Shown: in pieces, positions 920 through 28,374 of the stretch
Position numbering within the stretch: position 1 is the stretch's first letter
How the letters are laid out: every line of letters starts with the position of its first letter
From: an uncultured Rikenellaceae bacterium
GTDB taxonomy: Bacteria; Bacteroidota; Bacteroidia; Bacteroidales; VadinHA17
Length of the DNA: 33,870 nt
Assembly: GCA_964457185.1 (NCBI GenBank)
Contig: CAYWEQ010000011.1
Coordinates: forward strand, 1 to 33,870
Direction of reading: 5' to 3'
The notes under the pieces: model-generated
What the model was told of the DNA's origin: nothing
Seen by the model: only the letters and a program-made list of their open reading frames with translations
The model's database searches: none
Made by a program: the position numbers and the translations under genes

Positions 920-3604
920 CTATTTTTCTATTGAATCATATATTGCCTGTAATATATCTCCTCTTATATTAAGTTCCGATAACAGGTTGTTGTTTCGTGT
1001 CGGATTCACCCTGTTGCTCAGGAAGACATAGCTTATCTCATATTCCGGATCCACCCACACGAACGTCCCGGTATATCCTGAATGCCCGAAACTGACAGGT
1101 GAGGCGCTTCCGGCCGGGTAAGCATCCTTTTGAGTCAGTTCAGCATTATTGAGAAGCGGCTTGTCAAATCCCAGTCCGCGCCTGTTATCATTTTCAGGAT
1201 GCTGAACCCTGGTATATCGTTCCAGCACATCCCTGCTGATAATCTGTTCCCCTCCGTAGGATCCCATGCGCCGATAGAGCTCCATAAGCTTCATCAGGTC
1301 ATTGCCGGTTGCGAATAAGCCTGCATGCCCTGAGATGCCGCCAAGCATTGCTGCTCCCTCATCGTGCACAGTGCCGTGAAGCTGCTGCTTCCGGAACATG
1401 GAATCATATTCTGTCGGTACTATCCGGCTGAGAGGATACTTCACCCATGGATTGAAACAGATATCATAAGCTCCAAGCTTGTGCCAGACATTTGCGGCAA
1501 CATAATCATACCATTTCTCGCCGGCAAGCTTTTCAATTATTTCCGGGGAGATGATAAATGCAAGATCGGAATAGAGATATTTCTTCTCGCCAAGAGGAGA
1601 TTTTTTTATTTCATTAAAGATCTTCTTCCTGTAGTTTTCGTTGATAAAAAGCCACTGAGCAACTTCCAGCGGAAATTTATCCGACGATGCGTATTTGAAG
1701 ATATTCCTTTTGAACTCCCCGTTTTTTTTTACAGTCTCTCTCCAGAACGGGATCCATGAAATAAGCCCTGCCTGATGGGTCAGGATATCTGACATCAGCA
1801 GGTTCTCCTTATTGGAATTTTTGTAAAAGGGCAGGTAGTGTCCAAGAGTTTCGTCAGGAGAGAACCTGCCTTCACTGTCAAGAAGCATCAGTCCAGCAAG
1901 GGTGGAAGAGACTTTCGTTACCGATGCAAGGTCATAAAGATCATCCTCCTGAACGCTTATCCTGTTATCATAGGAATGATATCCATAAGTCTTGCTGAAT
2001 ACTACCATTCCTTTCCTTGCGACTGTAATCTCGCAGCCGGGGAAAGCTTTGGCTGTCAGTCCGATATTAACTATTGAATCAATGCTTCTTTCAAGCAGCG
2101 CTGACGACATCCCTGCATTTTCCGGCAGCCCGTATCCCATCCTTATATTTCCCGGTGTTATAATTCCGAAATCGTATGGCCATATCTCGTTGATTGTTAC
2201 GGGAAGGGACCCTCGTGCCCCTATCCCTCCGAAGATAAGCTGGGCTGACAGTTCCTCGGTAAATTCATTCTCCTGGTACGAAAGAACAAGCCCGTCAGCT
2301 TCTTTCAGCGATCTGATCCTGCCGATGGCATAGGGATTTCCAAACCAGGTAATTATTGTCCGGTTATTATCAATCAGCTTATCCAGGAATGTTGTCATTT
2401 CAGTCCTGATACCGAATCCGGACTGAGGACGCTGGTCAGTTCCATATATTCCTGCAATCACAATATCATATGCGGATAGCCTGCTGAGCAGATCATCTGC
2501 AGCTTTTATATCTGACAGATCGATATAGTAATTATCTGAAGGCTTATATTTTGATATTAACTTCTGAAACAGTGTTGTCCTGTTCTTGTTTACAGCAACG
2601 GTAGCTATTCTTATTTTATCGAGATTTTTAACTGGAACAATATTATCGTCGTTTTTCAGCAGAGTGAGGGCGTTCGCATATAATTCCCGGATCAATGCTT
2701 TCGTCTCAACCGATGACAGATTCTCTCCGAGGTTTTCTTCATTTATGTATTCGGATTGGTTGAGTCCTGCCCAATACTTTACAGCCAGAACCCTGCGGCA
2801 TTTTTCATTTATTGTCTCCTGAGATATACTCCCAGTCTTAATACCAGCACTTATTTCTTTCAGTGTGTGTTCCGGATCTTCTACATATTCAAGTACATCC
2901 ATGCCGGCTTTCAATGATAATAAACCAGTTCCTTCCCTTGACGGATAATTTGTGATGCCTGCCATATTCATGGCATTGGAAATAATTCCGTTATCCTGCA
3001 AGCCTTTCATAAACATCAGGGTTTTCCTGCTTACATTTTCAGGATCTTCACCAAAAGACCTGTAGTTTATTACAGGATTCTGAGGATTAATGTTAACATC
3101 AGCAACGGGAGCAAGGTTGATATGAATGCCAGCTCTTTTAAACTGTTCAGCAACTGCTTTACCCATCTGATAAATCAGTGAATCATCCCTTATTGCTCCA
3201 AGAGTCATCTGGTAAGGGAACCTGACTACCTTGTCCAGCCTCATTCCAAGACCCCATTCTCCGTCCTCGGCGAATATCAGCGGCACTCTTGAGATGCTCT
3301 GGAAATAGTTAAGCATTTCGGTCTGCTTCCCGGCAGTTCCCTCGAAAAAGACAACACCGCCGATACCTGATTTCCTGATTAAATTGGCCAGGTAGACCTC
3401 ATGGCCCATTTCACGGTTTGAATAGGCATCAATCCATATAAGCTGAGCAATTTTTTCTTCCTGAGAAAGAGTGTTGTACACAGAATCAACCCAGGGATGA
3501 TTTATATATTTTAAAAACGGAGGATCAGCTTTTTGAGCACTCAGCATAAAAGCTAGCTGGAAGAATAGAATTACGAATATGTACCTGATTGATTTAATAT
3601 GCAT
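920..3604 (-). CDS. Exported fusion protein: N-terminal GH3 (NagZ-like) module, apparently degenerate, plus a C-terminal class-C beta-lactamase-fold serine hydrolase (AmiE/YbbE-like MurNAc-L-Ala amidase candidate)
   Basis: GH3 motifs are AEDGEWGLGMRL and INLAPVADVNINPQNPVINYRSFGED. Beta-lactamase-fold motifs are SVTKV (SxxK), YSD and GHSGYTGTF. I place the start at Met16 (MHIKSIRYIFVILFFQLAFMLSAQ, a signal peptide), which removes the overlap with murQ. Confidence 0.85.
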   Translation of the reverse strand: MHIKSIRYIFVILFFQLAFMLSAQKADPPFLKYINHPWVDSVYNTLSQEEKIAQLIWIDAYSNREMGHEVYLANLIRKSGIGGVVFFEGTAGKQTEMLNYFQSISRVPLIFAEDGEWGLGMRLDKVVRFPYQMTLGAIRDDSLIYQMGKAVAEQFKRAGIHINLAPVADVNINPQNPVINYRSFGEDPENVSRKTLMFMKGLQDNGIISNAMNMAGITNYPSREGTGLLSLKAGMDVLEYVEDPEHTLKEISAGIKTGSISQETINEKCRRVLAVKYWAGLNQSEYINEENLGENLSSVETKALIRELYANALTLLKNDDNIVPVKNLDKIRIATVAVNKNRTTLFQKLISKYKPSDNYYIDLSDIKAADDLLSRLSAYDIVIAGIYGTDQRPQSGFGIRTEMTTFLDKLIDNNRTIITWFGNPYAIGRIRSLKEADGLVLSYQENEFTEELSAQLIFGGIGARGSLPVTINEIWPYDFGIITPGNIRMGYGLPENAGMSSALLERSIDSIVNIGLTAKAFPGCEITVARKGMVVFSKTYGYHSYDNRISVQEDDLYDLASVTKVSSTLAGLMLLDSEGRFSPDETLGHYLPFYKNSNKENLLMSDILTHQAGLISWIPFWRETVKKNGEFKRNIFKYASSDKFPLEVAQWLFINENYRKKIFNEIKKSPLGEKKYLYSDLAFIISPEIIEKLAGEKWYDYVAANVWHKLGAYDICFNPWVKYPLSRIVPTEYDSMFRKQQLHGTVHDEGAAMLGGISGHAGLFATGNDLMKLMELYRRMGSYGGEQIISRDVLERYTRVQHPENDNRRGLGFDKPLLNNAELTQKDAYPAGSASPVSFGHSGYTGTFVWVDPEYEISYVFLSNRVNPTRNNNLLSELNIRGDILQAIYDSIEK

Positions 3605-3620
3605 TGTATATTTTGTCGGT

Positions 3621-4463
3621 TTAGTGGGAATTCTTCCTGTAGGATTCAAGCGCTTTTTTTACAGACCCGTGTTTAAGAAGCAGGATCCTTGCAGCCTCTC
3701 TCTGGATGTTAAGCTCTTCTACCAGCATGCGTGTACCACGTTCAATTAGTTTCCTGTTCGTAAGCTGCATATTGACCATCTTGTTCCCTTTGACCCTGCC
3801 AAGCTTGATCATCACAGTTGTGGTTATCATATTCAGTATCATTTTCTGCGCCGTTCCTGCCTTAAGGCGGGTACTGCCTGTAACAAACTCCGGTCCCACA
3901 ACAGCCACTATGGGTATTTCAGCAGCCCCTGCAAGCTTGCTGCCGGGATTGCAGGTTATGCAACCGGTCAGTATCCCGTTCTCTCTTGCTTTCGTTATGC
4001 CGCCCAGAACATAAGGAGTCGATCCGGATGCGGCTATACCGATGACAGTGTCATTCTTGCCGATATTAAAGATATTAAGCTCTTTCCATGCTTTTTCAGG
4101 GTCATCCTCGGCAGCTTCCACAGATTTGCGCAGCGCTGTTTCGCCTCCGGCAATGAGCCCTATGACCATCGTACCCTGAACCCCGAAGGTGGGAGGGATC
4201 TCAGAGGCATCGAGAACGCCAAGCCTCCCGCTGGTACCTGCCCCCAGGTAAAAGATACGTCCCCCTTTTTTCATCTTTGAGATGATCTTTTTTACCAGTT
4301 TCTCAATTTGGGGAATGACTTTCCGGACAGCCAGATGTACTTGGGAGTCTTCCTGATTGATATTTTTCAATAATTCTCCTGCCTCCATCTTTTCAAGATT
4401 GTCAAAATTTGAGGACGATTCGGTTATACTAACCTTTACTGTAGGATTTTCCGGTTTTGCCAT
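3621..4463 (-). CDS. murQ: N-acetylmuramic acid 6-phosphate etherase (SIS domain)
   Basis: The SIS/MurQ pattern is present: GGRIFYLGAGTSGRLGVLDASEIPPTFG, AASGSTPYV and GSTRLKAGTAQK. Its ATG overlaps the upstream kinase stop by 1 nt (TAATG on the minus strand). Confidence 0.92.
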   Translation of the reverse strand: MAKPENPTVKVSITESSSNFDNLEKMEAGELLKNINQEDSQVHLAVRKVIPQIEKLVKKIISKMKKGGRIFYLGAGTSGRLGVLDASEIPPTFGVQGTMVIGLIAGGETALRKSVEAAEDDPEKAWKELNIFNIGKNDTVIGIAASGSTPYVLGGITKARENGILTGCITCNPGSKLAGAAEIPIVAVVGPEFVTGSTRLKAGTAQKMILNMITTTVMIKLGRVKGNKMVNMQLTNRKLIERGTRMLVEELNIQREAARILLLKHGSVKKALESYRKNSH

Positions 4464-5317
4464 TATTCATCTGTATCAAGATTGGTGATATGATATTTTA
4501 TCAGGTCAGCCATTGGAGATAAAGTGATCTTACCCGGTCTCAGACCATGCTTTTTCAGGGATTCTTCAAGAAACGTCCTGAAATGAACAGAAATGCTTCC
4601 TGTGAAATGGACCGGCAATACCTTTGATTCAGGGTACTGGAGTATGTTTCTTATTATGAATTCATCGAAGCTTGTGGTAACAATATCCTGTAATTCCTTA
4701 ATCCCCATGTTGGCCGATATGAACCTGGCAAACTGCCCGAGAAACCTGTTGGGAAAAGGCTTCATATATACTTTCTCAAGTATCTCAGCCGGTGTTATTT
4801 TGTAACTATCAAAGAACAGGTCAATGACATCCTTCGGAACCTGTTTTTTCAGTACTGCTGAAACCAGTTTCCTTCCTATAACTGCTCCTCCTCCTTCATC
4901 ACCCAGTATGTAGCCCAGCGGAGAGACATTTGCTGCAATGGATCTCCCGTCATAATAACATGAATTGGAACCTGTCCCCATGATACATGCAATACCCGCA
5001 TCATTCTGGCACAGTGAACGGGCTGCTCCGAGCAGGTCGGTGCCTATTAAAATTTCGCCGGCCGGGAAAACCCTGCTGATAGCCCCCTTTACAACATTGT
5101 TTTTGGCTTCACTGTTGCATCCGGTGCCGTAAAAATATATTTTGTCAAATGAATGTTCTGAAAGTTCAGGAAGCTCTTTTTTCAGGAGAAGATATATCTC
5201 ATCAGCAGGAAGAAAATACGGATTTATACCTGCAGAGAACAATGATTCTCCTGGTTTTCCTTCCTTTATTATTTTCCATTCGGTTTTTGTCGAACCGCTG
5301 TCAGCAACGAGAATCAT
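4463..5317 (-). CDS. murK: BadF/BadG/BcrA/BcrD-type sugar kinase; MurNAc/GlcNAc kinase candidate
   Basis: N-terminal MILVADSGSTKTEW (ASKHA phosphate-1 motif), plus CIMGTGSNS and LGDEGGG. It is translationally coupled to murQ, as in the Tannerella forsythia murTKQ arrangement. Confidence 0.75.
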   Translation of the reverse strand: MILVADSGSTKTEWKIIKEGKPGESLFSAGINPYFLPADEIYLLLKKELPELSEHSFDKIYFYGTGCNSEAKNNVVKGAISRVFPAGEILIGTDLLGAARSLCQNDAGIACIMGTGSNSCYYDGRSIAANVSPLGYILGDEGGGAVIGRKLVSAVLKKQVPKDVIDLFFDSYKITPAEILEKVYMKPFPNRFLGQFARFISANMGIKELQDIVTTSFDEFIIRNILQYPESKVLPVHFTGSISVHFRTFLEESLKKHGLRPGKITLSPMADLIKYHITNLDTDE

Positions 5318-5395
5318 GAATAATGATTGTTTAATATGTTGTTGTACTTGAATGTGTTAAATACAGGATAGCTTTATTTTTTTTGTGTTTGCATA

Positions 5396-5403
5396 CAAAA
5401 GTA
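5396..5403 (-). promoter_or_regulatory. Candidate -7 box (TACTTTTG on the minus strand) for the murK-murQ-GH3 fusion operon
   Basis: CAAAAGTA on the plus strand is TAnnTTTG on the minus strand. It lies about 80 nt upstream of the murK ATG at 5317. Confidence 0.3.
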
Positions 5404-5428
5404 AGTTAAAATTTGTAAGAAGAATAGT

Positions 5429-5452
5429 AAATTTATAAACTTTATAAATTTG
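5429..5452 (+). promoter_or_regulatory. Candidate Bacteroidota -7 promoter box (TAAATTTG, 5445-5452) embedded in a perfect 23-bp palindrome (5429-5451); candidate promoter/operator of the 5492-21704 operon
   Basis: The palindrome is AAATTTATAAA-C-TTTATAAATTT, with 11-bp arms that are exact reverse complements. TAnnTTTG lies 40 nt upstream of the ATG at 5492. Confidence 0.4.
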
Positions 5453-5491
5453 ATCATTATTGCTTATATTTCAACAATTACAGACTTCCTG

Positions 5492-8400
5492 ATGAACAGC
5501 ATTTTTTTTAAACGCATGGTAATAATCCCATGCTTAATTCTTTCAGGTTTTCAGGCGCTATATCCTCAGGTTAATGATAAGCTTGGCCGATCAGCAAAAG
5601 AGAGACTTAAAAGCTGGAAAAATCCTCTGACTGAATGGCAGCACATCGCCAAACCTGAGATTGATTCAGTCCTGGTTATGGAAGATCCGCAGAAAATTAT
5701 TCTTTATTTTAAGCCGGATCTCTCTTATTACCCGTTCAGGGAAGATAGCTATAGTCTGTTCCTGCAATCCTTCATAAAACCTCTCGGGAGGAAATTCCGC
5801 AGTTACAGCATAGATGTTATCACAAATAATTATTCACCCGGTCAGCTGATACCTAACTATTACCGTAAAGATATGCCGGTTGATTCATCACGTTTCCCGG
5901 TTGCCGGGAGAGTTAGGCCGGTCGTCGTCAGGAAGAAGAACGCGGAAACCTTTCAGAAGGGATTATCAGGTAATTCAGTGGCGTTATGGAACAGCCACGG
6001 TTACTATTTTGAGATGAACCTTGACCGGTGGGAATACCAGCGTGCAAAATTGTTCGGGACCGTGGAGGATATTTCGAACACCGGATTTGTGATCCCTTAC
6101 CTTACAAAGATGCTGGAGAATGCCGGTGCTGCCGTTTACCTGCCACGTGAGCGTGACACCCAGCTGAATGAGGTTATTGTCGATAATGACAGGTCAACAG
6201 GCAACTCTGAACTTGTACTACACCTTAATAATAATGTCAGGGAAGTATATAAGGGATTTATTCTCACAGATACACTGTTCCCGGATTACAATCCTTTCAG
6301 GCATGGCACATCGCTTCGAATTTCAGGTGATTCGGCAGATTTTATTCCCGATATTCCTGAAAAAGGCGACTATGCCGTGTATATCTCTTACCCGCTGCTG
6401 GAGGACAACAGCAGATCAGTCAGATATATTGTCAATCATACCGGAGGCAGAACAGAATATATTGTAAATCAAACAATTGGCGGTGGTACATGGATCTATA
6501 TCGGAACTTTCAGATTTGACAGAGGAAAGAATCCGCATACCGGATCTGTAACGGTGAAAGGTTCGGAAACCGATAGTGATCTTATTGCCCTTGATGCGGT
6601 AAAGTTTGGCGGAGGGATGGGGAACGTTGCCAGGCGTCCCTCACAGGAGATATTGATGAACCAGCAGTCAGTGAAGGAAAACAGCGCAGATGCTGTCAGG
6701 CAGGAATTACTTAACAGCGATGATTTCAGCTGGAAGCTGAGCGGAAAACCGAGATTTCTGGAAGCAGCAAGGTACTGGCTTCAGTATGCCGGCATGCCCG
6801 ATACACTGGTTTACAGCCCGAATACTTATAAGAACGATTATAACGATGACTATCAATCAAGGGGTTTATGGGTGAACTATCTTACTGAACTGCAGCCAAA
6901 GGGTCTTGGATTGCCAGTCGATCTGTCGCTCGCCTTCCACACCGATGCAGGCATCACGGATGGTGATTCCATCATAGGAACACTCGCAATATGTTATACC
7001 TCAGCCGATAACGGTAAGTTCCCGGACGGGACATCCAGGATGGCAGGCAGGGATCTTTGCGATGTTGTTCAGACACAGATAGTAGAAGATATAAGGAGGA
7101 TCTATGATCCTGACTGGACAAGAAGAGGATTATGGGACAGGCCTTATTCAGAAGCAAGAAGACCCGGTGTACCTGCTATGCTTCTAGAACTGCTCTCGCA
7201 TCAGAACCTGGCAGATATGAAGTATGGAATTGATCCTCGATTCAGATTCGAAGTATGCCGCTCCATATATAAAGGTATTCTGAAATACATCTCATATACA
7301 GAGAACAGGGATTATGCGGTTCAGCCTCTTCCGGTTTCAGATATGGCAATAACTCCCATGGGAGGCAAGACAATCAGGCTCTCATGGGAACCCGTGATTG
7401 ATGTGAGCGAACCTTCATCAAGACCTGACAGATATAAAATCTATACACGTCTCGGTGATAACGGTTTTGATAATGGATTTATAGTGAATGGCACATCTGC
7501 TGAAATAGAGCTGGCTTCTTATGATTCGATCTGCAGCTTAAAGGTAACTGCAATAAATGAAGGAGGCGAAAGTTTTGATTCAGAAATACTTTCAGCAGGG
7601 ATCAGTTCAGAAGCTTCAGGAAGTGTACTTGTTGTCAACGGATTTAACCGTATTTCCGGACCGGCATGGTTCGACACAGGGACGATGGCAGGGATTGCCT
7701 GGTGGGATGACCGCGGGGTGGCTGATCATTATGATATAATAACACTGGGAGACCAGTATGATTTCGACAGGGACAATCCATGGGTTGATGATGACTCGCC
7801 GGGGTGGGGTGCATCATATTCAGATAAGGCCGGAAAGGCAATTCCCGGAAACAGCTTCGACTTCCCTTATATTCATGGAAAAGCAATCATGGCGGCAGGA
7901 TACTCCTTTTATTCAGTTTCCGATGAATATTTTAATTCACCGGGTTCAAATGTCTCATCATTCAAAATAGTTGATCTTATTTTCGGAGAGGAAAAGACCA
8001 CTCAGTTTTTTAATGATACATCCGGATACGATTTCCGGATATATACACCGGAATTCATCCGGAAGATCACCGAATTGACAGGTGCCGGTACAAATATCTT
8101 CATTTCAGGTTCCTATGTCGGATCTGACCTGTTCATGACAGGCGATTCTACTGCAGTAAAATTCGCCGGCGATATACTTCATTTTACTCATCGCACAGGG
8201 CATGCGGTAAGAACCGGGGATGTTTATTCAACTGATTATGCAAAGAGCAATTTTTCAGGTTCTTTCAGCTTTAATGCAGGTCATTCTGTTTCAATATATT
8301 CTGCCGAGGCTCCTGATGCAATTGAACCTTCTGGCAAAGGAGCCGTATGCTCTTTCCGTTATGCCGAAAATAACGCCGCGGCTGGCGTGGCATACAATGG

Positions 8401-8503: not shown

Positions 8504-8512
8504 GCTATAATC

Positions 8513-19348: not shown

Positions 19349-19376
19349 GATTGGGATGTAATTAAAACATGGAACT

Positions 19377-21704
19377 ATGGAGATAGAAGGATTATCAAAG
19401 GTAGAGCAGTCGTTTTTCAACCGCTCGGGGAGAAAAGATTTTTCCACTAAGATACCTTACATAATTGTAAAGAATTTCCCTGACCTTGGATTGATTAGTT
19501 CACTGAGATTCCTGGAATGGCTGGCTGAAAATCCTGAAGGAAAGATCAGTCTTCCAACCGGCAAGACCCCTGAGTATTTTATTAAATGGACGCAAAGGCT
19601 TCTGGAAGGCTGGAACAAACCGGAGAACCGAAAGCTGATGGAAGAGAACGGCCTCTTCCTGACCAGGAAACCTTCGCTTAAAGGATTGCACTTCGTTCAG
19701 ATTGATGAGTTCTATCCCATTAATCCGAAACACCATAACAGCTTTTATGATTATGTAATGAATTATTACATAAAGGGATTTGATCTTGATCCTGGCAGGG
19801 CTCTGCTGATAAATGCCGACGAGATACCATTGTCCCGGGGTAAACATTTTTCCGAAGTATTCCCCGACAACCGTATTGACCTGACCCTTAGGAACAGGGA
19901 GGCTGTTACTCCGCTCGAAAAGTTGCAGCAGGCTTCTCTTTTCAGCATAGATAACTGGTGTACCGGCTATGAGAACAGGATCAGGGAAATGGGAGGGATA
20001 GGTTTCTTCCTTGGGGGCATGGGCCCTGACGGTCATATAGCCTTCAATACACGAGGCAGTGATCATAATTCCTCAACCCGTTTGACGGCTACCAACTTTG
20101 AAACACAGGCTGCATCGGCTGGCGACCTCGGTGGAATTGAAGTATCAAGGACCAGGCTGGTAATAACAATAGGGCTGGGAACAATTACCTGCAACCCTGA
20201 TGGTGTTACAATAATCTTCGCAGCCGGCGAGGCTAAGGCTCCTGTTGTGAGAAATGCTCTTGAAAATCCGCCTGATAACCTTTACCCGGCAACTGTCCTG
20301 CAAAGGCAGAAGAATGCTCGCTTCTACCTTACCGAGGGAGCAGCAGTTCTGCTTAATGACTGCATTGAAAAGTACTTCAAGGAAGGCGAATGGACCTTTG
20401 AAAAAACGGAAAAGGCAATTTTTGACCTGTGTCAGAGAATTGATAAATACGCACATAAACTGGAAATAGATGACCTCAGAAATGACAGGTACTGCTGCCT
20501 CATTCCCGGCCTGAGCATGGAGCGGGTGAAGGAAGTCATTGAAGCAACAAAAAAGAAAATTGAAGCCGGTAATAAAAAAGAACAAAATCAAACCTTTCTC
20601 CACACCGGACCCCATCATGACGATATAATGCTGGGTATTTTCCCGTGTATTATTCCTCAGCTTCGAATTACTTCCAATAAATTTCATTTTGCAGTATTTA
20701 CATCAGGATTTACTGCTGTTACAAACATTATGCTCCAGAATCTTCTTGAAGAGACACTTAATCATATAGAGCAGGATAAGATTAATATGATTGAATATCC
20801 GGATTTTTTTGATCAGGGATACAAATACAAATTTGATAAGGATGTGAGCCATTATCTTGATAAGATAGCGGCTAAAGATGAAGCAGGTAAATTAAGAGGT
20901 ATTTGTCACAGGATGATCAGGGTGATGGTACATATTTACAGACTGAAATCCCGGGAAGAGCTGACAGACCGGATAAAAAAGAATATTGAATTATTGAAAT
21001 CAAGCTATAGCGGGGAAAAGAATTCTCCTGATATTCAGAAGCTTAAAGGAATGCTCCGCGAATATGAGGAAGAGCTGGTTTGGGCTCATTACGGGGTTAA
21101 AGTTCAGGACATCGAGCACCTCCGTCTTGGATTCTATACCGGAGACATATTTACACCCCAGCCTCAAAGTGAGAGGGACGTGGAACCCATCCTTGATATG
21201 CTCAGACGCGTTAAGCCTACAATTGTAAGCCTTGCTTTTGATCCGGAAGGATCAGGCCCCGATACTCATTATAAGGTTCTGCAGGCACTCGCAGAAGCAC
21301 TGCGGCAGTGGAAAAAGGAGACTGACACTTCGGCGCTCAGGATAATTGGTTACAGGAATGTTTGGTTCAGATTCCATCCCGCTGATGCTAATATATTCAC
21401 TCCCGTATCCCTGAATTCAATGGCAATACTCGACCGGTCGTTCATGAACTGCTATATAAGCCAGGTTGATGCTTCATTCCCGAGCTACGAGCTTGACGGG
21501 CCTTTCAGCGATCTTTCCCAGCAGATATGGGTTGAACAGTTCAAGCGTGTGCAACTGATCCTGGGCAAGGATTTCTTCTATCAGCATGAAAGCCCGAAGA
21601 TAAGGGCAACACACGGTATGATATTTCATAAGGAGATGAAGGTGGATGAGTTTCTCATTCATGCCCGTGAACTGGAAAAGAGCATGGAGGGAGAAACAGG
21701 GTAG
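19377..21704 (+). CDS. nagB: Long glucosamine-6-phosphate deaminase (NagB-like N-terminal domain) fused to an LmbE/PIG-L-like deacetylase-fold domain
   Basis: NagB blocks are ISLPTGKTPEYF, FVQIDEFYP and GGMGPDGHIAFN. The LmbE-like motif is HTGPHHDDIMLG, and FDPEGSGPDTHYK lies further downstream. Confidence 0.8.
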   Translation: MEIEGLSKVEQSFFNRSGRKDFSTKIPYIIVKNFPDLGLISSLRFLEWLAENPEGKISLPTGKTPEYFIKWTQRLLEGWNKPENRKLMEENGLFLTRKPSLKGLHFVQIDEFYPINPKHHNSFYDYVMNYYIKGFDLDPGRALLINADEIPLSRGKHFSEVFPDNRIDLTLRNREAVTPLEKLQQASLFSIDNWCTGYENRIREMGGIGFFLGGMGPDGHIAFNTRGSDHNSSTRLTATNFETQAASAGDLGGIEVSRTRLVITIGLGTITCNPDGVTIIFAAGEAKAPVVRNALENPPDNLYPATVLQRQKNARFYLTEGAAVLLNDCIEKYFKEGEWTFEKTEKAIFDLCQRIDKYAHKLEIDDLRNDRYCCLIPGLSMERVKEVIEATKKKIEAGNKKEQNQTFLHTGPHHDDIMLGIFPCIIPQLRITSNKFHFAVFTSGFTAVTNIMLQNLLEETLNHIEQDKINMIEYPDFFDQGYKYKFDKDVSHYLDKIAAKDEAGKLRGICHRMIRVMVHIYRLKSREELTDRIKKNIELLKSSYSGEKNSPDIQKLKGMLREYEEELVWAHYGVKVQDIEHLRLGFYTGDIFTPQPQSERDVEPILDMLRRVKPTIVSLAFDPEGSGPDTHYKVLQALAEALRQWKKETDTSALRIIGYRNVWFRFHPADANIFTPVSLNSMAILDRSFMNCYISQVDASFPSYELDGPFSDLSQQIWVEQFKRVQLILGKDFFYQHESPKIRATHGMIFHKEMKVDEFLIHARELEKSMEGETG

Positions 21705-21727: not shown

Positions 21728-22978
21728 TCAATACAGGAAATAGTTACCGGCCCTGGTCCTGAAAGCCGGAATATCGCCGGTCCACATATCAATGATGGAA
21801 TCTACTCTCCAGGTCTTTGTGAACAGGATTCTTACCTGGTCGGTTCCGCAAACCTTATCGAACATATCGAGCCTCGCCTTTTCACAGATGGCAAAAATAT
21901 CTTTTCCGGGCCATAGTTTCCATGCTTCCTGCAGTATGTAGAACTGAATGAGCGACAGTGGTGCTATTCTGATATCCGTCAGATGTATCTGGACCCCGTG
22001 TACCATTTTACCCTGTGAAACACTGTAGTATGGTTTGTAATGCACGGGTCTGAAAATAACACCGGGAAGATCAAGCGAATTAAGGTTCCGGGCAAGCGAG
22101 TCAGCATCGTACCATTCAGTTGCAAACATCTGAAATGGCAATGTGTAACCGACCCCGATGCTTGCAACATACAATTCACCTGTGATACCGGTGGCGGGAT
22201 AATAGCAGGCTGTTACAGCATGAGGTATATGAGGAGAGGAGGGAACCCAGGGCAGCCCGGTATCCTCAAAGGACATATCTCTTTTCCATCCGTTCATCTT
22301 TATAACTTTCAGATCGCATCTTACGCCGTTTTCAAGAAGCCCTTCCCCATTCAGGTATAATGCAAGCTCACCGACAGTCATCCCATGAACATAAGGGATA
22401 GGATACTGGCTCACAAAAGATATGAATCCCTCCCTTACCAGCGGCCCTTCCATCCTGAACCCGCCAAGAGGATTAGGCCGGTCAAGGACGATAAACGGGA
22501 TATTACTTTCAGCAGCAGCCTCCATGGCAAGCCCCAGGGTGCTGATATATGTGTATGACCGGGATCCGATATCCTGTATGTCATACACAAGAACATCTAT
22601 CCCTTTGAGCATCTCTTTAGTTGGTTTTCTGGTGTTTCCATACAAGCTGTAAACGGGTAAACCTGTGGAGGGATCAGTTGCCGATCCTATGATCTCACCT
22701 GCAGTATAATCACCTCTCACTCCATGCTCAGGCCCGTAAAGAGCGGTAAGCTTAACACCGGGTGCGTTATATAAAAGGTCAATACAGGATTGTAAATCCC
22801 TGTTGACTCCGGTGGGATTGGTTATCAATCCCACTTTTTTGCCCTTTAATATTTCAAACTTGCTTTTAACAAGAACCTCCAGGCCTGTTTCAACAGGCTG
22901 TCCCTGCAGAGTGCAGGTTACGATAAAAATATGGATTACCGTAAGAATTGTCATGAATGTAATAACTCTGTGTCTCAT
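21728..22978 (-). CDS. namZ: DUF1343 / YbbC family exo-beta-N-acetylmuramidase, exported
   Basis: The N-terminal hydrophobic leader is MTILTVIHIFIVTCTLQG. DUF1343 blocks are VGLITNPTGV, ALYGPEHG, DVLVYDIQDIGSRSYTYIST and FIVLDRPNP. Confidence 0.85.
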   Translation of the reverse strand: MRHRVITFMTILTVIHIFIVTCTLQGQPVETGLEVLVKSKFEILKGKKVGLITNPTGVNRDLQSCIDLLYNAPGVKLTALYGPEHGVRGDYTAGEIIGSATDPSTGLPVYSLYGNTRKPTKEMLKGIDVLVYDIQDIGSRSYTYISTLGLAMEAAAESNIPFIVLDRPNPLGGFRMEGPLVREGFISFVSQYPIPYVHGMTVGELALYLNGEGLLENGVRCDLKVIKMNGWKRDMSFEDTGLPWVPSSPHIPHAVTACYYPATGITGELYVASIGVGYTLPFQMFATEWYDADSLARNLNSLDLPGVIFRPVHYKPYYSVSQGKMVHGVQIHLTDIRIAPLSLIQFYILQEAWKLWPGKDIFAICEKARLDMFDKVCGTDQVRILFTKTWRVDSIIDMWTGDIPAFRTRAGNYFLY

Positions 22979-23042: not shown

Positions 23043-24224
23043 ATGAGATTCAAAGTTATTCTGATCTTATTACTTCTGGTCACCGGATGCAGAACCAGGG
23101 AAGTGCCGCTTCAGATACAGAAAGATATTGACTCAATAGCAGTCAAATGGGTCCCTGATGAACGTGAGGGTATCTGCAGGTTTACTGTGAATATGTTAGC
23201 AGGTGATGCCCTGGTAATAAAAGGCGAAACAAACTTACCCGAAGCAAAAAATGAAATAATCAGTTATCTGGGAAACACGGGACTGCAGATCTTTGACAGT
23301 CTTAAAATCCTTCCCGATCCTTCAGGAACAGAAAAAAGGTGGGGATTGGTCACAGTAAGTGTCTGTAACATCAAAAGCAAACCATCCTTTGCAAGCGAAC
23401 AGGTCTCTCAGGCTGTAATGGGAACCCCTGTGAAAATCCTTAAAACCGGCGGAAGCTGGTTGCTGATACAAACTCCGGATCATTACCTTGGATGGACAAC
23501 TGACAGCAGCATAAGTGAAATGGATGAAGATGAAATCGCAGAATGGAAACTGTCTGACAGGTTGATATATACCTGTAAATCAGGCGATATCATGTCTGAA
23601 ACTGACGGAAGCGGTGTGATCTCGGATATTACTGCAGGTGCTGTCCTGCAAAAGATATCAGAAAGCAGGGATTATTATACTGTTGAGCTTCCTGACGGAA
23701 GAAGGGGGATTGTCAGTAAAAAGGAGACTGCTGAGTTTGATAAGTGGTGCGCCGAAATCAAACCCGATCCTGACAGGATGATTCAATTTGCTGAATCGCT
23801 GAACGGCTCGCCGTATATGTGGGGAGGAACATCTTCCAAGGCGATAGACTGCAGCGGATTTATCAAGATAATATTTTTTACAGGCGGTATCGTTCTGGCA
23901 CGCGATGCCTCGCAACAGTTTTCATACGGAGAGCCTGTTGACATTTCTTCATCCTGCGATTCTCTTGCACCGGGTGACCTGATCTTCTTCGGACATCTTA
24001 ATGATAAGGGAGAAAAAAGAATCACACATGTCGGAATGTATATCGGCGATACTGAAGTGATACATTCATCCGGAATGGTCAGGATAAACAGCCTTGATTC
24101 GACCCGCATCAACTACAGCAGTTATCTGAAAAAAACAATAATGGGAGCACGCAGAGTTATCGTTGAAGATTCTCAGAAAGGAACAGAGTCAGTAGCTCAT
24201 CATAGCTGGTATAACAATCTGTAA
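23043..24224 (+). CDS. Lipoprotein with SH3b-like repeats and a C-terminal NlpC/P60 cysteine peptidase domain (YkfC-like gamma-D-glutamyl-L-diamino acid endopeptidase candidate)
   Basis: The lipobox is MRFKVILILLLLVTGC from the ATG at 23043. NlpC/P60 catalytic context is PYMWGGTSSKAIDCSGF and HVGMYIGDTEVIHSS. The track's 22803 start overlaps namZ and is rejected. Confidence 0.85.
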   Translation: MRFKVILILLLLVTGCRTREVPLQIQKDIDSIAVKWVPDEREGICRFTVNMLAGDALVIKGETNLPEAKNEIISYLGNTGLQIFDSLKILPDPSGTEKRWGLVTVSVCNIKSKPSFASEQVSQAVMGTPVKILKTGGSWLLIQTPDHYLGWTTDSSISEMDEDEIAEWKLSDRLIYTCKSGDIMSETDGSGVISDITAGAVLQKISESRDYYTVELPDGRRGIVSKKETAEFDKWCAEIKPDPDRMIQFAESLNGSPYMWGGTSSKAIDCSGFIKIIFFTGGIVLARDASQQFSYGEPVDISSSCDSLAPGDLIFFGHLNDKGEKRITHVGMYIGDTEVIHSSGMVRINSLDSTRINYSSYLKKTIMGARRVIVEDSQKGTESVAHHSWYNNL

Positions 24225-24225
24225 A

Positions 24226-25380
24226 ATGAAGAAAAGGGATTTTTTGAAATACTGCTCCTTGATGGCAGGTGCAATGATTTCCGGCAGAGCAGGTGCTATT
24301 GCTGCTCCGGTAAAAACAACATCCTCAATGAAACGAAAGAGTAAAACAATGAAGCTCACGTTTATACCGTATGAGCTTCAGCTTAAACATGTGTTTACGC
24401 TGGCGACCAGCTCACGCACCACTACACCAGTTGTGCTTACAGAAATTGAGTACGACGGACAAAAAGGTTACGGTGAAGCCTCAATGCCTCCATACCTGGG
24501 AGAAAGTCATGAAACAGTGATAAAATTTCTTTCTCAGGTTAACCTTTCACAGTTTAAAGATCCTTTCCTCATTGAGGATATAGTGGCATATCTTGACGGA
24601 ATCATGCCTGGCAACTATGCAGCTAAAGCCTCTGTAGACATAGCTCTGCATGACCTTGTCGGGAAGCTGACAGGGAAACCATGGTTCAGGCTCTGGGGCC
24701 TTGATCCTGAGAAAACTCCCTTTACAAGCTTTACGATCGGCATTGATACCCCTGAGGTCGTCCGGCAGAAAGTTGCTGAGGCAGAACCTTATAAAATACT
24801 GAAAGTAAAGCTTGGACTTGGCAATGATAAGGAAATGGTTGAAACTATAAGGAGCATATCGGACAAACCGATCTGTGTGGATGTCAACCAGGGATGGAAA
24901 GACAGGAACTACGCCCTTGAAATGGCATACTGGCTTAAAGAAAATAATGTAATATTCCTTGAGCAGCCGATGCCGAAAACCATGACAGATGATATTGCCT
25001 GGCTTAATGCAAATTCACCCGTCCCGGTTGTTGCGGATGAGGCGCTGCAGACAATAGATGACCTTCTCACGATGAAAGGAGTATATTCCGCAATAAACAT
25101 CAAGCTGATGAAATGCGGAGGAATGAATGCGGCATACAAGATTGCCCTGATGGCAAGCGGGATGGGGATGAAGGTGATGATCGGTTGTATGACCGAAACA
25201 TCATGTGCAATATCAGCGGCTGCGCAGCTCTCACCGCTGGCTCAATGGGCCGACCTTGATGGTAATCTGCTGATAAGCAACGATTGTTACGAAGGCGTTA
25301 CCATCACCGATGGCAAGATAACCCTTAATGAAAAACCCGGGATAGGGATCACCGAAAAAATAAAAATGTTCCACAACTGA
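24226..25380 (+). CDS. Enolase-superfamily dipeptide epimerase (L-Ala-D/L-Glu epimerase, YkfB/YcjG-like) with an N-terminal Tat-like extension
   Basis: MR/MLE-type blocks are ILKVKLG, VDVNQGW, LEQP, VVADE and NIKLMKCGG. The ATG lies 1 nt after the NlpC/P60 stop. The first 41 aa read MKKRDFLKYCSLMAGAMISGRAGAIAAP... Confidence 0.8.
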   Translation: MKKRDFLKYCSLMAGAMISGRAGAIAAPVKTTSSMKRKSKTMKLTFIPYELQLKHVFTLATSSRTTTPVVLTEIEYDGQKGYGEASMPPYLGESHETVIKFLSQVNLSQFKDPFLIEDIVAYLDGIMPGNYAAKASVDIALHDLVGKLTGKPWFRLWGLDPEKTPFTSFTIGIDTPEVVRQKVAEAEPYKILKVKLGLGNDKEMVETIRSISDKPICVDVNQGWKDRNYALEMAYWLKENNVIFLEQPMPKTMTDDIAWLNANSPVPVVADEALQTIDDLLTMKGVYSAINIKLMKCGGMNAAYKIALMASGMGMKVMIGCMTETSCAISAAAQLSPLAQWADLDGNLLISNDCYEGVTITDGKITLNEKPGIGITEKIKMFHN

Positions 25381-25425
25381 TCATTGATCTATATTGCTAT
25401 TTTTATAGCTTTTTAGGATTTGAAT

Positions 25426-26526
25426 ATGGCAAAAGGCAGCAACCGGCTTGTTTCGCTTGATATATTCAGGGGATTAACAATCGCCTTCATGATTATAGTG
25501 AACACCCCAGGTAGCTGGAATTATGTTTATCCTCCCCTTAGCCATGCAAAATGGCATGGATGCACTCCCACCGATCTTGTTTTTCCTTTCTTCCTTTTCA
25601 TCGTGGGCGTCTCAATGTGGTATTCTTTTAAGAAGTATGGACATGAGATCAACACCGGATCACTGCTGAGAATACTCAGGCGGACAATTGCCATTTTTGC
25701 TGTTGGTATTTTCCTGGCAATATTCCCTTACTTCAACAGGGACTATTCAACACTCAGGATAATGGGAGTCCTCCAGAGGATTGCTGTTGCTTATGGCATA
25801 GGAGCTGTCATCTGCCTGGCAGTCAGACGTGAATATCTCTGGATTGTCACAGCCATTCTCCTGGTTCTCTACTGGGCACTGCTGGCATTATTCGGCGGAC
25901 CAGAACCATACAGCCTTGAAGGAAATCTTGTGCAGAAGGTTGATGCTGCAATACTTGGAACAAACCATCTGTACAGGGGATACGGAGTGCCTTTTGACCC
26001 TGAGGGATTGCTGAGTACACTGCCGGCAATAGGTACTGTCTTGATCGGGTATTTCATTGGCGAAATACTTGGCAAAGAAACACCATCAGGCAGAACAGTT
26101 TTAAAGCTCCTCCTGTTTGGAGTTGCATCAGCCGGGCTGGGTCTTTTATGGGGCCTTGTCTTCCCGGTCAATAAACCGATATGGACAAGTTCATATGTGC
26201 TCTATACGGCAGGCTGGGCAATGGCAGTACTGGCTGTTATTTATTATCTTGCTGACGTTCTTAGATTCCAGAAATGGGGACTTTTTTTTATGGTATTCGG
26301 CATGAACGCCCTGTTCTCTTTCGTTCTTGCCGGAATATGGACACGATTGATGTATTTCATTAAAATACAGGAGAATACAAGCCTTTATTCATGGTTTTAT
26401 GAAAAGATTTGCATTCCGGTCGCAGGAAATATGAACGGAAGCCTTATGTTTGCATTGATACAGATGTTACTGATATGGGTGATCGCATTAATATTGTATA
26501 AAAAGAAGATATTGATAAGACTTTAG
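25426..26526 (+). CDS. HGSNAT-like (DUF1624/DUF5009) multi-pass membrane acyl/acetyltransferase
   Basis: RLVSLDIFRGLTIAFMIIVNTPGSW...LSHAKWHGCTPTDLVFPFFLFIVGVSM resembles the heparan-alpha-glucosaminide N-acetyltransferase core, including the conserved His. The protein has about 11 hydrophobic segments. ATG at 25426 is preferred over TTG at 25420. Confidence 0.75.
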   Translation: MAKGSNRLVSLDIFRGLTIAFMIIVNTPGSWNYVYPPLSHAKWHGCTPTDLVFPFFLFIVGVSMWYSFKKYGHEINTGSLLRILRRTIAIFAVGIFLAIFPYFNRDYSTLRIMGVLQRIAVAYGIGAVICLAVRREYLWIVTAILLVLYWALLALFGGPEPYSLEGNLVQKVDAAILGTNHLYRGYGVPFDPEGLLSTLPAIGTVLIGYFIGEILGKETPSGRTVLKLLLFGVASAGLGLLWGLVFPVNKPIWTSSYVLYTAGWAMAVLAVIYYLADVLRFQKWGLFFMVFGMNALFSFVLAGIWTRLMYFIKIQENTSLYSWFYEKICIPVAGNMNGSLMFALIQMLLIWVIALILYKKKILIRL

Positions 26527-26566
26527 CGGTACAACGGTACAATGGTGCAATGGTACAATGGCATAT
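26527..26566. repeat. Tandem 8-bp repeat (CGGTACAA family), about 4.5 units, starting at the first base after the HGSNAT-like gene's TAG
   Basis: Read directly: cggtacaa cggtacaa tggtgcaa tggtacaa tggcatat. Confidence 0.9.
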
Positions 26567-26612
26567 AGACAGTGCAACTCGGTGATAAACTCCGTGGTTA
26601 AAAGATAAAAGC

Positions 26613-27647
26613 ATGACTGAAATTGAAATAATATCAGAAGGTTACAAAGAGCTGTTCGGCGGTTCAGATATTATGACCACACCTCTTCCGAGATCAGGTT
26701 CCGACAGGAGATATTTCAGAATAGAAGAAGGCAGTAAAAGTATCATCGGAGCCTATAATCCCAACCTGGAGGAAAACGAAGCATTTGTGGGATTCACTAA
26801 CCATTTCATTACCAAAAGCCTTCCTGTACCGGAAATTTACGGATACCTTCCCGGTAAATTTGTTTATTACCTGAAGGATCTTGGTGACACGAACCTGTAC
26901 ACATGGCTTCATGGCAGAAGTGATATCTCAAACTTCAATTCAGAAACGAAAGAACTCTACCGTAAAATAATTGATACTCTGATCTTGTTTCAGACCCAAG
27001 GTATAAAAGGGCTTAATCTTGATCTCTGTTACCCGCACCGGAGCTTTGACCGCCAGTCAATGATGTGGGATCTTAATTATTTCAAGTACATGCTGCTGAA
27101 GCTTCTGGCAGTTCCTTTTAATGAACGCAGCCTTGAGCAGGACTTTGTCTCTCTGGCCGATTACCTGCTTGAAACGGGACAGGACTATTTCCTTTACAGG
27201 GACTTTCAGACAGCTAATATAATGGTAATCGGGAATGAGCCATGGTTCATTGATTACCAGGGCGGCAGGAAAGGAGCTCCCCAGTACGATGTTGCCTCCC
27301 TGTTGTACGATGCAAAAATCCCGATGCTGCAGGCTGACAGGGATGAGATCCTCGATTATTATATTGAGAAATTCTGTCAGATATCACATGAGGATAAGAC
27401 GAAATTCAGAGGCTATTATGCCGGCTTCAGCATGATAAGGGTGATGCAGGCGCTGGGAGCTTTCGGCTTCAGAGGCCTGTATGAGCAGAAACCAACATTC
27501 ACCGAAAGCATAGTACCGGGTGTCAGTCTGCTGACACAGATCATGCTTCTGGCTGAAAGCCATATTACACTGCCTGAATTATACCATACAGTCAGATCGA
27601 TCCCTGAATCGCAAATATTTCAACGACTTTCTTTAGAGCATCATTAA
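26613..27647 (+). CDS. amgK: Anomeric MurNAc/GlcNAc kinase (aminoglycoside phosphotransferase fold)
   Basis: The APH-type catalytic loop is YRDFQTANIMV with IDYQGG. The gene lies immediately upstream of a MurU-type nucleotidyltransferase, as in the Pseudomonas amgK-murU pair. Confidence 0.75.
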   Translation: MTEIEIISEGYKELFGGSDIMTTPLPRSGSDRRYFRIEEGSKSIIGAYNPNLEENEAFVGFTNHFITKSLPVPEIYGYLPGKFVYYLKDLGDTNLYTWLHGRSDISNFNSETKELYRKIIDTLILFQTQGIKGLNLDLCYPHRSFDRQSMMWDLNYFKYMLLKLLAVPFNERSLEQDFVSLADYLLETGQDYFLYRDFQTANIMVIGNEPWFIDYQGGRKGAPQYDVASLLYDAKIPMLQADRDEILDYYIEKFCQISHEDKTKFRGYYAGFSMIRVMQALGAFGFRGLYEQKPTFTESIVPGVSLLTQIMLLAESHITLPELYHTVRSIPESQIFQRLSLEHH

Positions 27648-27657
27648 ATTTTGTCGA

Positions 27658-28374
27658 ATGAAGGCAATGATCCTTGCAGCCGGAAAAGGCACACGGCTTG
27701 GAAAAATTACTGATAATATTCCAAAGGTGCTTCTTGAAGTGAACGGGAAGAGTCTCCTTCGTCTTGCTGTTGAGAATTGTTCAGCCTATGGATTTGAAGA
27801 CATCATCATCAATGTGCATCACCTGGCAGATATGGTTGAGGATGAAATAGAAAGGCTGATCAGGGATGGATTTAAAATTACTGTATCGGACGAAAGGGAT
27901 ATGCTCCTTGAAACTGGCGGCGGGCTCTTCAAGGCCAGGGATTTTTTTGATACCAATCCATTCCTTTTATATAATGCTGATACAATTACTGACCTGGACC
28001 TTTCTGTGTTGTACCGGCATCACCTGAAAATGAAGGGACTGGCAACACTTGCTGTCAGGAACCGCGAAGGGAAAAGGTATCTTCTCATTGATAAGGAAGG
28101 CTTGATGAAAGGCTGGTGCAACAAAGTGACAGGAGAAAGAATTATTGCATGTGAGGAAACGGAAGATCTATCAGAAATAGCTTTTTCAGGAAGACATATC
28201 ATTGAGCCCGAAATATTCAATTACATGAGTGATGGTGTTTATACCATGACAGCACTATATCTTCACCTGGCAGAATCACACAAAATCTTCACCTACAGGG
28301 AGGACGGAGGTTACTGGATTACTGTAGGTACTCCCGAAGACGTGGAAAATGCAAGGGAATTCTTCAGAAAATAA
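27658..28374 (+). CDS. murU: MurNAc-alpha-1-phosphate uridylyltransferase (sugar nucleotidyltransferase fold)
   Basis: The N-terminal motif is MKAMILAAGKGTRLG, and the 238-aa size fits. It lies 10 nt downstream of amgK. Confidence 0.75.
   Translation: MKAMILAAGKGTRLGKITDNIPKVLLEVNGKSLLRLAVENCSAYGFEDIIINVHHLADMVEDEIERLIRDGFKITVSDERDMLLETGGGLFKARDFFDTNPFLLYNADTITDLDLSVLYRHHLKMKGLATLAVRNREGKRYLLIDKEGLMKGWCNKVTGERIIACEETEDLSEIAFSGRHIIEPEIFNYMSDGVYTMTALYLHLAESHKIFTYREDGGYWITVGTPEDVENAREFFRK

Follow-up and report, generated by a model that had tools for sequence, protein, structure and literature searches.

The region between positions 920 and 28374 of the analyzed window, a stretch of 33,870 nucleotides from an uncultured Rikenellaceae bacterium (assembly GCA_964457185.1, contig CAYWEQ010000011.1), is very probably an accessory locus for the utilization or salvage of peptidoglycan fragments, and an enlarged relative of the operon Tanf_08345-08385 of Tannerella forsythia. 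Seventeen genes are packed almost without spacing across this region, as seen from the list of open reading frames (ORFs), and searches with Pfam and NCBIfam profiles, the latter read against their curated equivalog cut-offs, placed nearly all of them in named families, in support of an earlier first-pass annotation that had described a peptidoglycan salvage gene cluster. The key genes did not fall into other families: MurQ and NamZ scored over the cut-off, and models of AmpG, AmgK and MurU were the best matches of the respective proteins. Family memberships, export signals, a gene order shared with related loci and genes for de novo cell wall synthesis were observed directly. The source is a metagenome-assembled genome (MAG) of 2.38 Mb in 228 contigs that is 64% complete; among public genomes, uncultured Bacteroidales/Bacteroidia MAGs are most similar to it, in first place one from Lake Pavin sediment.

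In T. forsythia, the operon comprises, in this order, genes for a "xanthan lyase", gtf, gtf, lytB, ampG, ybbC/namZ1, murT, murK and murQ; it is transcribed as one unit and activated by GppX, growth on peptidoglycan requires its ampG, and the function of its four upstream genes is unknown (PMC5388701, PMC7670621, bioRxiv 10.1101/2021.12.02.470905). The N-acetylmuramic acid (MurNAc) of T. forsythia is split between MurK/MurQ and AmgK/MurU (PMC7670621). The window shares with this operon Golvesin_C, GT2, DUF4922, SpoIID/LytB, AmpG and NamZ1-type GH171 genes in the same order, a MurK with an S-P-L pocket, MurQ, and, as predicted, the two-branch fate of MurNAc with AmgK/MurU as the anabolic arm; a similar cluster occurs in Bacteroides fragilis. 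The comparison with the T. forsythia region made at first pass was apt with regard to both content and order of the core, whereas the novelty claimed for the locus was overstated, as the core operon and the two-branch fate of MurNAc had already been published (PMC5388701, PMC7670621, bioRxiv 10.1101/2021.12.02.470905). There are also clear differences. In the window, murK and murQ are divergent from the main operon rather than placed at its end; a GH9-CE4 gene, a gene for a dehydrogenase with flavin adenine dinucleotide (FAD) and iron-sulfur (FeS) domains and a NagB-LmbE-like gene are added inside the operon, and genes for a P60 lipoprotein, an epimerase, NagX, AmgK-MurU and a GH3/beta-lactamase-fold fusion alongside it. 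T. forsythia has the MurNAc transporter MurT, whereas AmpG and the NagX-like protein are the only transporters of the locus, and all ORFs of at least 100 amino acids in the window were assigned to other families, MurT itself not having been searched for by sequence. Moreover, the host of the window has retained murA and glmS as well as a murB fragment, and a GppX-type regulator is not seen in the window. Particular to the window are the physical link to AmgK-MurU and a freshly broken NagZ module.

Relatives of the GH9-CE4 protein were found at 579 or more places in genome contigs, and gene order was read in 80 loci. The order of the window is kept in about 25 loci from Bacteroidales MAGs, whose GH9-CE4 proteins are 60-86% identical: genes for the GH3 fusion, MurQ and MurK on the minus strand, followed on the plus strand by those for the Golvesin protein, GT2, DUF4922, SpoIID, GH9-CE4, AmpG, the dehydrogenase and the NagB-like protein, then NamZ on the minus strand, and P60 and the epimerase on the plus strand. 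In this comparison of synteny, which had been suggested at first pass, the repetition of one order in some 25 independent MAG loci means that the clustering is not due to chance. The order is partly kept in Marinilabiliales; Prolixibacteraceae and Marinilabilia carry a rearranged version that lacks the dehydrogenase and NagB-like genes and includes NagX and a GH3-less fusion. The locus of the cultured Marinilabilia salmonicolor JCM 21150 (L081) contains MurQ, MurK, Golvesin, GT2, DUF4922, SpoIID, GH9-CE4, AmpG, NagX and NamZ genes, and Tangfeifania diversioriginum DSM 27063 (L054) is another cultured carrier.

The distribution of the two branches differs. When 120 other families of the order were sampled with one genome apiece, 108 of these genomes had AmgK and 23 had MurQ (109 and 24 of 121 order genomes), and AmgK lay within 20 kb of MurQ in two of the 18 other families that have both; in one of these two (G082), Golvesin, NagX, GH9-CE4 and MurK genes are nearby. 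Within the genus, all 12 other species carry AmgK, while four carry MurQ and three carry DUF4922 with NamZ1, and several congeners that are 99-100% complete have kept AmgK without MurQ and DUF4922. These counts show that the harvest and catabolic part is accessory, whereas AmgK-MurU is near-universal. The two branches are joined in G001, G002 and the congeners G126, G128 and G130; in G128 and G130, AmgK adjoins the core operon but the locus is devoid of MurQ. The physical joining remarked on at first pass is therefore real but narrow, an infrequent arrangement that has nonetheless been met more than once. Since AmgK is near-universal, its adjacency may partly reflect the landing site of an accessory locus. 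According to the founding paper on NamZ, most bacteria with the anabolic route lack this enzyme (PMC8054146), which makes their occurrence in one locus somewhat unusual, although T. forsythia also has both.

The catabolic core is formed by murQ (3621-4463) and a MurK-type MurNAc kinase gene (4463-5317), which abut on the minus strand. MurQ, the MurNAc 6-phosphate etherase, scored 308.3 bits with TIGR00274, against an equivalog cut-off of 302, and 369 bits with PRK05441. The kinase, of BadF/BadG/ASKHA fold, matched the T. forsythia MurK entries 8oqw (E 1.7e-72) and 8ow9 (E 5.1e-72). In MurK, the lactyl ether is accommodated by S133-P134-L135, in place of which the slow paralogue K1058 carries R-A-L (PMC10465942). 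The similarity to the MurK structures together with the lactyl-pocket motif S-P-L at residues 132-134 identifies the window kinase as MurK-type.

NamZ (21728-22978, minus strand), a GH171 protein with a predicted signal peptide, exceeded the Pfam cut-offs of both NamZ_N (288 bits) and NamZ_C (116.8 bits). It gave 514.6 bits to 4K05 as compared to 176.4 bits to 4JJA, which are B. fragilis NamZ1 and NamZ2, respectively; BfNamZ1 clusters with TfNamZ1, and the latter frees the disaccharide of N-acetylglucosamine (GlcNAc) and MurNAc, GlcNAc-MurNAc, from peptide-free glycan (bioRxiv 10.1101/2021.12.02.470905). Judged by these scores, the window NamZ is of the NamZ1, disaccharide-releasing type, so that GlcNAc-MurNAc, its likely product, would be the substrate of AmpG. 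A second GH171 paralogue, NamZ2-like and of 38% identity, lies at G000:C70:3458-4594; a NamZ2-like paralogue was seen in all 12 sampled congeners, including those without the large locus. For the permease itself (14767-16431, 554 amino acids), a member of the major facilitator superfamily, the best matches were AmpG models, TIGR00901 (E 1.6e-42), PRK11902 (E 1.5e-30) and PRK11010 (E 1.1e-22), all three under the curated cut-offs. A crude hydropathy scan detected at least seven hydrophobic segments, and the position of the gene after SpoIID/GH9-CE4 is kept across related loci.

Two genes for follow-on enzymes are located downstream of ampG. The first (16436-19348) encodes a protein of YdiJ/Dld-II type with FAD_binding_4, FAD-oxidase_C and Fer4 (4Fe-4S) domains and a GlpC-like part, which reached 591 bits with the YdiJ model against a cut-off of 1350; from gene context, we infer that it is a D-lactate dehydrogenase. 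The second (19377-21704) encodes a 775-amino-acid protein with a NagB domain (TIGR00502, E 5.4e-25; GPDGHIAFN block present) fused to a divergent LmbE/PIG-L-like domain. The first-pass designation NagB-LmbE appears right as a statement of homology: residues 98-705 align (E 1e-37) with canonical NagB-PIG-L fusions of 633-668 amino acids from other Bacteroidales, which had been found with PF02585, and the two-domain alignment pairs the zinc motifs PHHDD with PHPDD and PDTH with HGTH, a single His of HxxH being kept. The LmbE part, however, is invisible to Pfam, with no PIG-L match in the protein; the alignment places a large insertion of about 130 residues between PHHDD and PDTH. A search with the C-terminal half returned a list filled by relatives of at least 79% identity without PIG-L annotation. 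The NagB-like protein is unusually conserved, with 74-88% identity between loci whose first operon genes share 52-80%, and more than 6,500 protein clusters in a large protein collection are related to it.

At the other end of the locus, the minus-strand ORF at 920-3649 encodes an exported protein of 909 amino acids, with ATG 3604 as likely start, in which a broken NagZ-type GH3 barrel is followed by a GH3 C-domain and a beta-lactamase fold. Its predicted signal peptide ends in LSA-Q. Pfam recognized Glyco_hydro_3 and Beta-lactamase (138 bits), PBP4B was the top NCBIfam match, and the SxxK (S576-V-T-K) and H-S-G motifs of the beta-lactamase fold are intact, which makes this part a putative AmiE/PBP4B-like hydrolase and a candidate amidase. 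The protein previously called AmiE-like thus has the hydrolase fold, but only as the C-terminal part of the GH3 fusion. In comparison to B. subtilis NagZ, GLQDNGI runs directly into ISNAMNM in the window protein, whereas the closest relative (L014, 80% identical) and L042 have 89 extra residues including KHFPGHGD..DSH, followed by ISDAMNM. As these two keep both features, the window gene has undergone an in-frame deletion of 89 residues, or 267 bp, and an Asp to Asn exchange of the nucleophile; at the DNA level, the deletion junction lies at a short ATAAT-like repeat (2975-2990). The earlier statement that the window has no catalytically intact nagZ was accordingly correct. Related loci form a graded series: L014 and L042 have a complete barrel, the window and L020 have lost about 90 residues from within it, and L019, L028, L038, L039 and L069 lack it as a whole, with the signal peptide fused straight to the GH3 C-domain; the GH3 C-domain and the beta-lactamase fold were retained in every locus of this series. 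Comparison of these sequences indicates that loss of the NagZ barrel is recent in the window and recurrent across the fusion family. Elsewhere in the same genome, contig C214 carries another NagZ-like gene, in which the motifs of the dyad and the nucleophile are present; it was considered as an intact allele of the broken gene and rejected, being a different gene of 23-33% identity. The B. subtilis murQ-murR-murP-amiE-nagZ-namZ cluster likewise brings together a NagZ-type GH3, an AmiE-like hydrolase, NamZ and MurQ. In contrast to B. subtilis, the NagZ and AmiE-like parts are fused in one exported protein in the window, the NagZ barrel has been inactivated here and is absent from several relatives, NamZ belongs to the NamZ1 type, uptake is by AmpG instead of the phosphotransferase system permease MurP, and there is no MurR.

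The anabolic branch is represented by an AmgK-like anomeric sugar kinase (26613-27647) of APH fold (E 2e-10) and a MurU-like sugar-1-phosphate uridylyltransferase (27658-28374), both encoded on the plus strand. The only NCBIfam matches of the former were NF045759 with 52.3 bits (cut-off 550) and NF045698 with 37.3 bits (cut-off 500). NF045761 was the top NCBIfam match of the latter, with 125.9 bits against a cut-off of 250, and its best solved relatives are Pseudomonas putida MurU 4y7t (E 6.9e-24) and 8hhd. As in the P. putida AmgK-MurU(-MupP) system, the APH-fold kinase gene adjoins the MurU-like gene, and the pair is kept in five of five relatives; unlike in P. putida, both proteins remain far below the equivalog cut-offs, and a common transcript probably covers the pair along with the P60, epimerase and NagX genes. 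In most sampled Bacteroidales, the open frame that holds the AmgK-like match has about 470-520 amino acids, as compared to 352 in the window and its congeners, and many relatives may carry an extra domain of about 130 amino acids on this protein. Upstream of the pair, 25420-26526 was counted at first pass among about five unassigned genes, which does not hold for this one: it encodes a NagX-like (HGSNAT-type) polytopic membrane acetyltransferase with ten hydrophobic segments, matching NF046061 at E 4e-45 (154.5 bits; cut-off 480). NagX is linked to AmgK-MurU in G001-G004 as well. In G001 and G002, the two closest relatives, AmgK-MurU directly follows NagX; in the more distant Bacteroidales genomes G003 and G004 (L096, L097), the GH3 fusion and a NagX-AmgK-MurU block lie at a locus apart from the main operon, and in G005 AmgK is 550 kb from the main locus. 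NagX-AmgK-MurU is a conserved three-gene block, which hints that NagX works with the anabolic branch. With regard to enzymes that feed the bypass, neither AnmK nor MupP was found in the window, and there was no PF03702 match for AnmK in the 64%-complete genome; MupP was not searched for genome-wide.

Between namZ and nagX, two plus-strand genes encode a possible stem-peptide module. The product of 23043-24224 is a YkfC/dipeptidyl-peptidase VI-like SH3b-NlpC/P60 lipoprotein with NLPC_P60, SH3_3 and SH3_16 matches (76.8, 49.2 and 37.7 bits) and a lipobox LVTGC after the Met at 23043. The adjacent gene (24226-25380) encodes an enolase-superfamily dipeptide epimerase (MR_MLE_N, MR_MLE_C) that is YkfB/YcjG/DgcA-like, with DgcA at 219 bits and YcjG at 161.6 bits, both under the cut-off. 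Its leader (24226-24330) contains KKRDFLK, conserved as KKR[DE]F[LI]K, and an orthologue from Prolixibacteraceae has NRRNFLK, a canonical twin-arginine motif. The canonical arginine pair in that orthologue makes export via the twin-arginine translocation (Tat) system look real, and the conserved Tat-like leader strengthens what had been put forward as a possibility. Both pairs reported earlier, AmgK/MurU-like and YkfC/YkfB-like, are present. B. subtilis YkfC/YkfB and Bacteroides dipeptidyl-peptidase VI also show an SH3b-NlpC/P60 (SH3_16) protein beside a dipeptide epimerase of the enolase superfamily, but with the P60 protein being a lipoprotein and the epimerase carrying a Tat-like leader, the window enzymes probably both act outside the cytoplasm.

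The first four genes of the main operon correspond to those of unknown function in T. forsythia. The first (5492-8503) encodes an exported protein of 1003 amino acids with a split Amidase_3-like core, an inserted Golvesin_C module (E 8.8e-20), Fn3 and a C-terminal alpha/beta domain. Its Amidase_3 match, named at first pass, has little strength for the window sequence itself (E 7.6e-5), yet it is repeated in 18 of 20 orthologues, among which Golvesin_C was detected in 20 and fn3 in 19; moreover, H169, E192, H483 and E566 are invariant in the 20 orthologues. The sole solved relative is a xanthan lyase from Paenibacillus, matched in its C-terminal domain (6f2p, residues 947-1036), which explains the published "xanthan lyase" annotation of the T. 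forsythia counterpart, Tanf_08345. A profile of the 20 sequences retrieved only the xanthan-lyase domain and Fn3 from the PDB sequences. An AlphaFold2 model from the 20-sequence alignment had a mean predicted local distance difference test (pLDDT) score of 62, with the putative amidase core below 50, and a Foldseek search of PDB with it recovered Fn3, the xanthan-lyase C-domain and a weak class-I amidotransferase-like match to the C-terminal domain. The three following proteins lack signal peptides. The GT2 glycosyltransferase (8513-9988) has Glycos_transf_2 at residues 249-382, DSDD at 337-340, no hydrophobic segment and an unassigned N-terminal half. The DUF4922 protein (9998-10933; PF16269, 210.6 bits) shows a weak Ap4A_phos_N match and HFHFQ at 148-152, and belongs to the GalT/GDP-L-galactose phosphorylase branch of the HIT superfamily; the literature found for related enzymes concerns GDP-L-galactose phosphorylase and GDPGP1. 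In one congener, the DUF4922 match sits in an open frame of 822 amino acids (G130:C13:454357-455280), which suggests fusion with a neighboring gene, GT2 or SpoIID. The SpoIID/LytB-type lytic transglycosylase homologue (10930-12276; TIGR02669, 172.7 bits; VISSEM block at 125-130) cannot be extended upstream, 10930 being the first start codon past the upstream stop; its N-terminus is not hydrophobic, and the signal-less N-terminus is common to about 40 orthologues. The DSDD, HFHFQ and VISSEM sequences of these three proteins are motifs of catalytic type, as is HSDKH in the CE4 domain encoded by the next gene.

The composition of this group raises the question whether the "xanthan lyase", GT2, DUF4922 and SpoIID genes form a module for glycan synthesis or glycosylation that is linked to the remainder by history alone. 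Both GT2 and the HIT enzyme, which is of sugar-nucleotide type, belong to biosynthetic families, the three inner proteins all lack export signals, and Tanf_08345-08370 was called glycosylation-related by an earlier study, as far as the citation in PMC5388701 conveys it. We nevertheless regard this explanation as very unlikely: in some 35 loci, which represent two orders or more, the four genes are joined to AmpG, GH9-CE4, MurK and MurQ, the SpoIID/LytB and Amidase_3 families are specific to peptidoglycan, and the genes are co-transcribed with ampG-namZ1-murTKQ in T. forsythia (PMC5388701).

The fifth operon gene (12273-14756, likely start ATG 12285) encodes an exported CelD_N-GH9-CE4 fusion with 245 bits for GH9, 69 bits for CelD_N and 39.6 bits for CE4, and an HSDKH motif at 676. 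The CE4 domain is closest to PdaA/PdaB; PdaA is a MurNAc deacetylase of the spore cortex whose target is MurNAc without peptide. GH9-CE4 is also widespread as a stand-alone gene in Muribaculaceae, Ignavibacteriales, Chitinophagales and other groups. In 26 distant loci (L061-L093), it is mostly surrounded by housekeeping genes, among them those for an FeS/NAD-binding oxidoreductase pair, HisRS and SppA, and a TonB-dependent receptor is a further recurrent neighbor; this gave no functional clue. A tentative suggestion, for which we see little more than an outside chance, is that the signal-less GT2, DUF4922 and signal-less SpoIID proteins, GH9-CE4 and NagX carry out undescribed chemistry on peptide-free glycan and on imported GlcNAc-MurNAc, one possible form being an energy-saving splitting of the disaccharide that does not depend on NagZ. 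If true, such NagZ-free splitting would explain the repeated decay or loss of the NagZ barrel while GT2, DUF4922, SpoIID, GH9-CE4 and NagX stay.

Following these assignments, we propose that the Amidase_3-like protein and/or the beta-lactamase-fold hydrolase would remove stem peptides in the periplasm, that the NamZ1-type enzyme would free GlcNAc-MurNAc from the bared glycan, and that GH9-CE4 would act on glycan ends. The P60 lipoprotein and the Tat-exported epimerase might process stem peptides outside the cytoplasm, while AmpG would bring disaccharides into the cytoplasm. In the catabolic branch, MurK would produce MurNAc 6-phosphate and MurQ would convert it to GlcNAc 6-phosphate and D-lactate, the latter being used by the FAD/FeS dehydrogenase and the amino sugar by the NagB-LmbE-like protein; in the re-use branch, AmgK and MurU would turn MurNAc into uridine diphosphate MurNAc. 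In this scheme, the substrates, the order in which the enzymes act and their co-regulation are inferred, as is what GT2, DUF4922, the signal-less SpoIID, GH9-CE4 and NagX contribute. The families and the signal peptides predicted on the GH3/beta-lactamase-fold fusion, the Golvesin/amidase protein, GH9-CE4 and NamZ are in line with the function already read from the genes at first pass, i.e., periplasmic dismantling, import via AmpG, and MurK/MurQ with follow-on enzymes. The same genes might mainly recycle turnover products of the cell's own wall, as a housekeeping function, rather than foreign peptidoglycan. AmpG and AmgK/MurU are classic recycling parts, the window has neither a SusC/SusD pair nor a TonB-dependent receptor, genes for de novo wall synthesis are present, and GH9-CE4 stands alone among housekeeping genes in the 26 distant loci. 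However, the harvest and catabolic genes are patchy within the genus, which is a misfit with a housekeeping role, the dissimilatory enzymes in the operon (dehydrogenase and NagB-type deaminase) point to use as food, and the T. forsythia counterpart takes up foreign fragments (PMC7670621). Recycling of the own wall is hence possible but clearly the less probable explanation.

Several points weigh against the interpretation as a peptidoglycan utilization locus. The locus is known here from its genes alone, and the correspondence to the Tanf_ genes was established by domain content, gene order and published annotation, not by alignment. Due to scores below the equivalog cut-offs, the substrates of AmgK, MurU, AmpG, the epimerase and the dehydrogenase are matters of interpretation. 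The amidase call consists of a half-domain Pfam match and four invariant residues, in a part where the structure model is poor. With the NagZ module broken, no enzyme of the window was shown to split imported GlcNAc-MurNAc, and the absences of anmK and mupP mean little in a genome that is 64% complete.

The heavy reliance on exogenous cell wall fragments suggested at first pass, if understood as MurNAc auxotrophy, found no support. The genome encodes MurA (439.5 bits, over the cut-off) and GlmS (809 bits), nagA is present on contig C75, cut by the contig end, and murB is represented by a 43-residue C-terminal match at the extreme edge of contig C131; murB is over the cut-off in eight of the 12 other species of the genus. 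On the basis of murA, glmS, the murB fragment and its presence in these congeners, the organism is not a MurNAc auxotroph, and auxotrophy was rejected. The resemblance of the locus to that of the auxotroph T. forsythia, the incompleteness of the genome and the shortness of the murB fragment might still be taken to suggest dependence on the locus, but the fragment sits at a contig edge and most congeners live without the locus, so that this alternative is extremely unlikely and already close to refuted. More likely, the locus serves feeding on, or thrifty re-use of, cell wall debris. Searching for the remaining salvage genes elsewhere in the genome, as advised at first pass, recovered nagA and the NagZ-like gene on C214, but not anmK, for which the incompleteness of the genome applies.

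Peptidoglycan is a large pool of carbon and nitrogen from dead cells in sediments and guts, and its consumption by Bacteroidota has been worked out only in the oral auxotroph T. forsythia. The locus described here would mean that prototrophic Bacteroidales with a free-living habit possess, as an accessory trait, a version that is larger and modular, with downstream catabolic enzymes and the anabolic bypass wired in beside the core. Current knowledge is not overturned by it; however, this family of loci provides a natural series of NagZ-module decay, and the cultured carriers Marinilabilia and Tangfeifania could serve for work on the published "unknown" operon genes.

Regarding transcription, gene spacing and -7 motifs indicate that the locus is probably organized in four units. 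The plus-strand genes between 5492 and 21704 are separated by 4-28 nucleotides or overlap by 4 nucleotides. Of the 18 copies of the Bacteroidetes -7 motif TAnnTTTG counted in the window, five fall into intergenic DNA (roughly 2.4% of the DNA), and three intergenic copies are located just upstream of the main operon (5445, plus strand), murK (5403, minus strand) and the P60 gene (23006, plus strand), the first two lying in the divergent promoter region at 5396-5452. No intergenic copy precedes amgK, which suggests that amgK-murU is co-transcribed with the P60, epimerase and nagX genes. The predicted units would be murK-murQ-GH3/beta-lactamase-fold fusion on the minus strand, the eight-gene operon at 5492-21704 on the plus strand, namZ alone on the minus strand, and P60-epimerase-nagX-amgK-murU on the plus strand. 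A perfect AT-rich palindrome of 23 bp at the main promoter (5429-5451) was considered as a conserved operator and rejected, as no palindrome with arms of at least eight bases occurs in the same region of 18 relatives. The window contains no regulator, SusC/SusD pair, TonB-dependent receptor, anmK, nagA, mupP or intact nagZ; these absences, listed correctly at first pass, hold because every ORF of at least 100 amino acids was assigned and the intergenic gaps are too short for a further gene. The locus is flanked by genes unrelated to it, encoding an alanine symporter, two TrkH proteins and enzymes of norspermidine synthesis.

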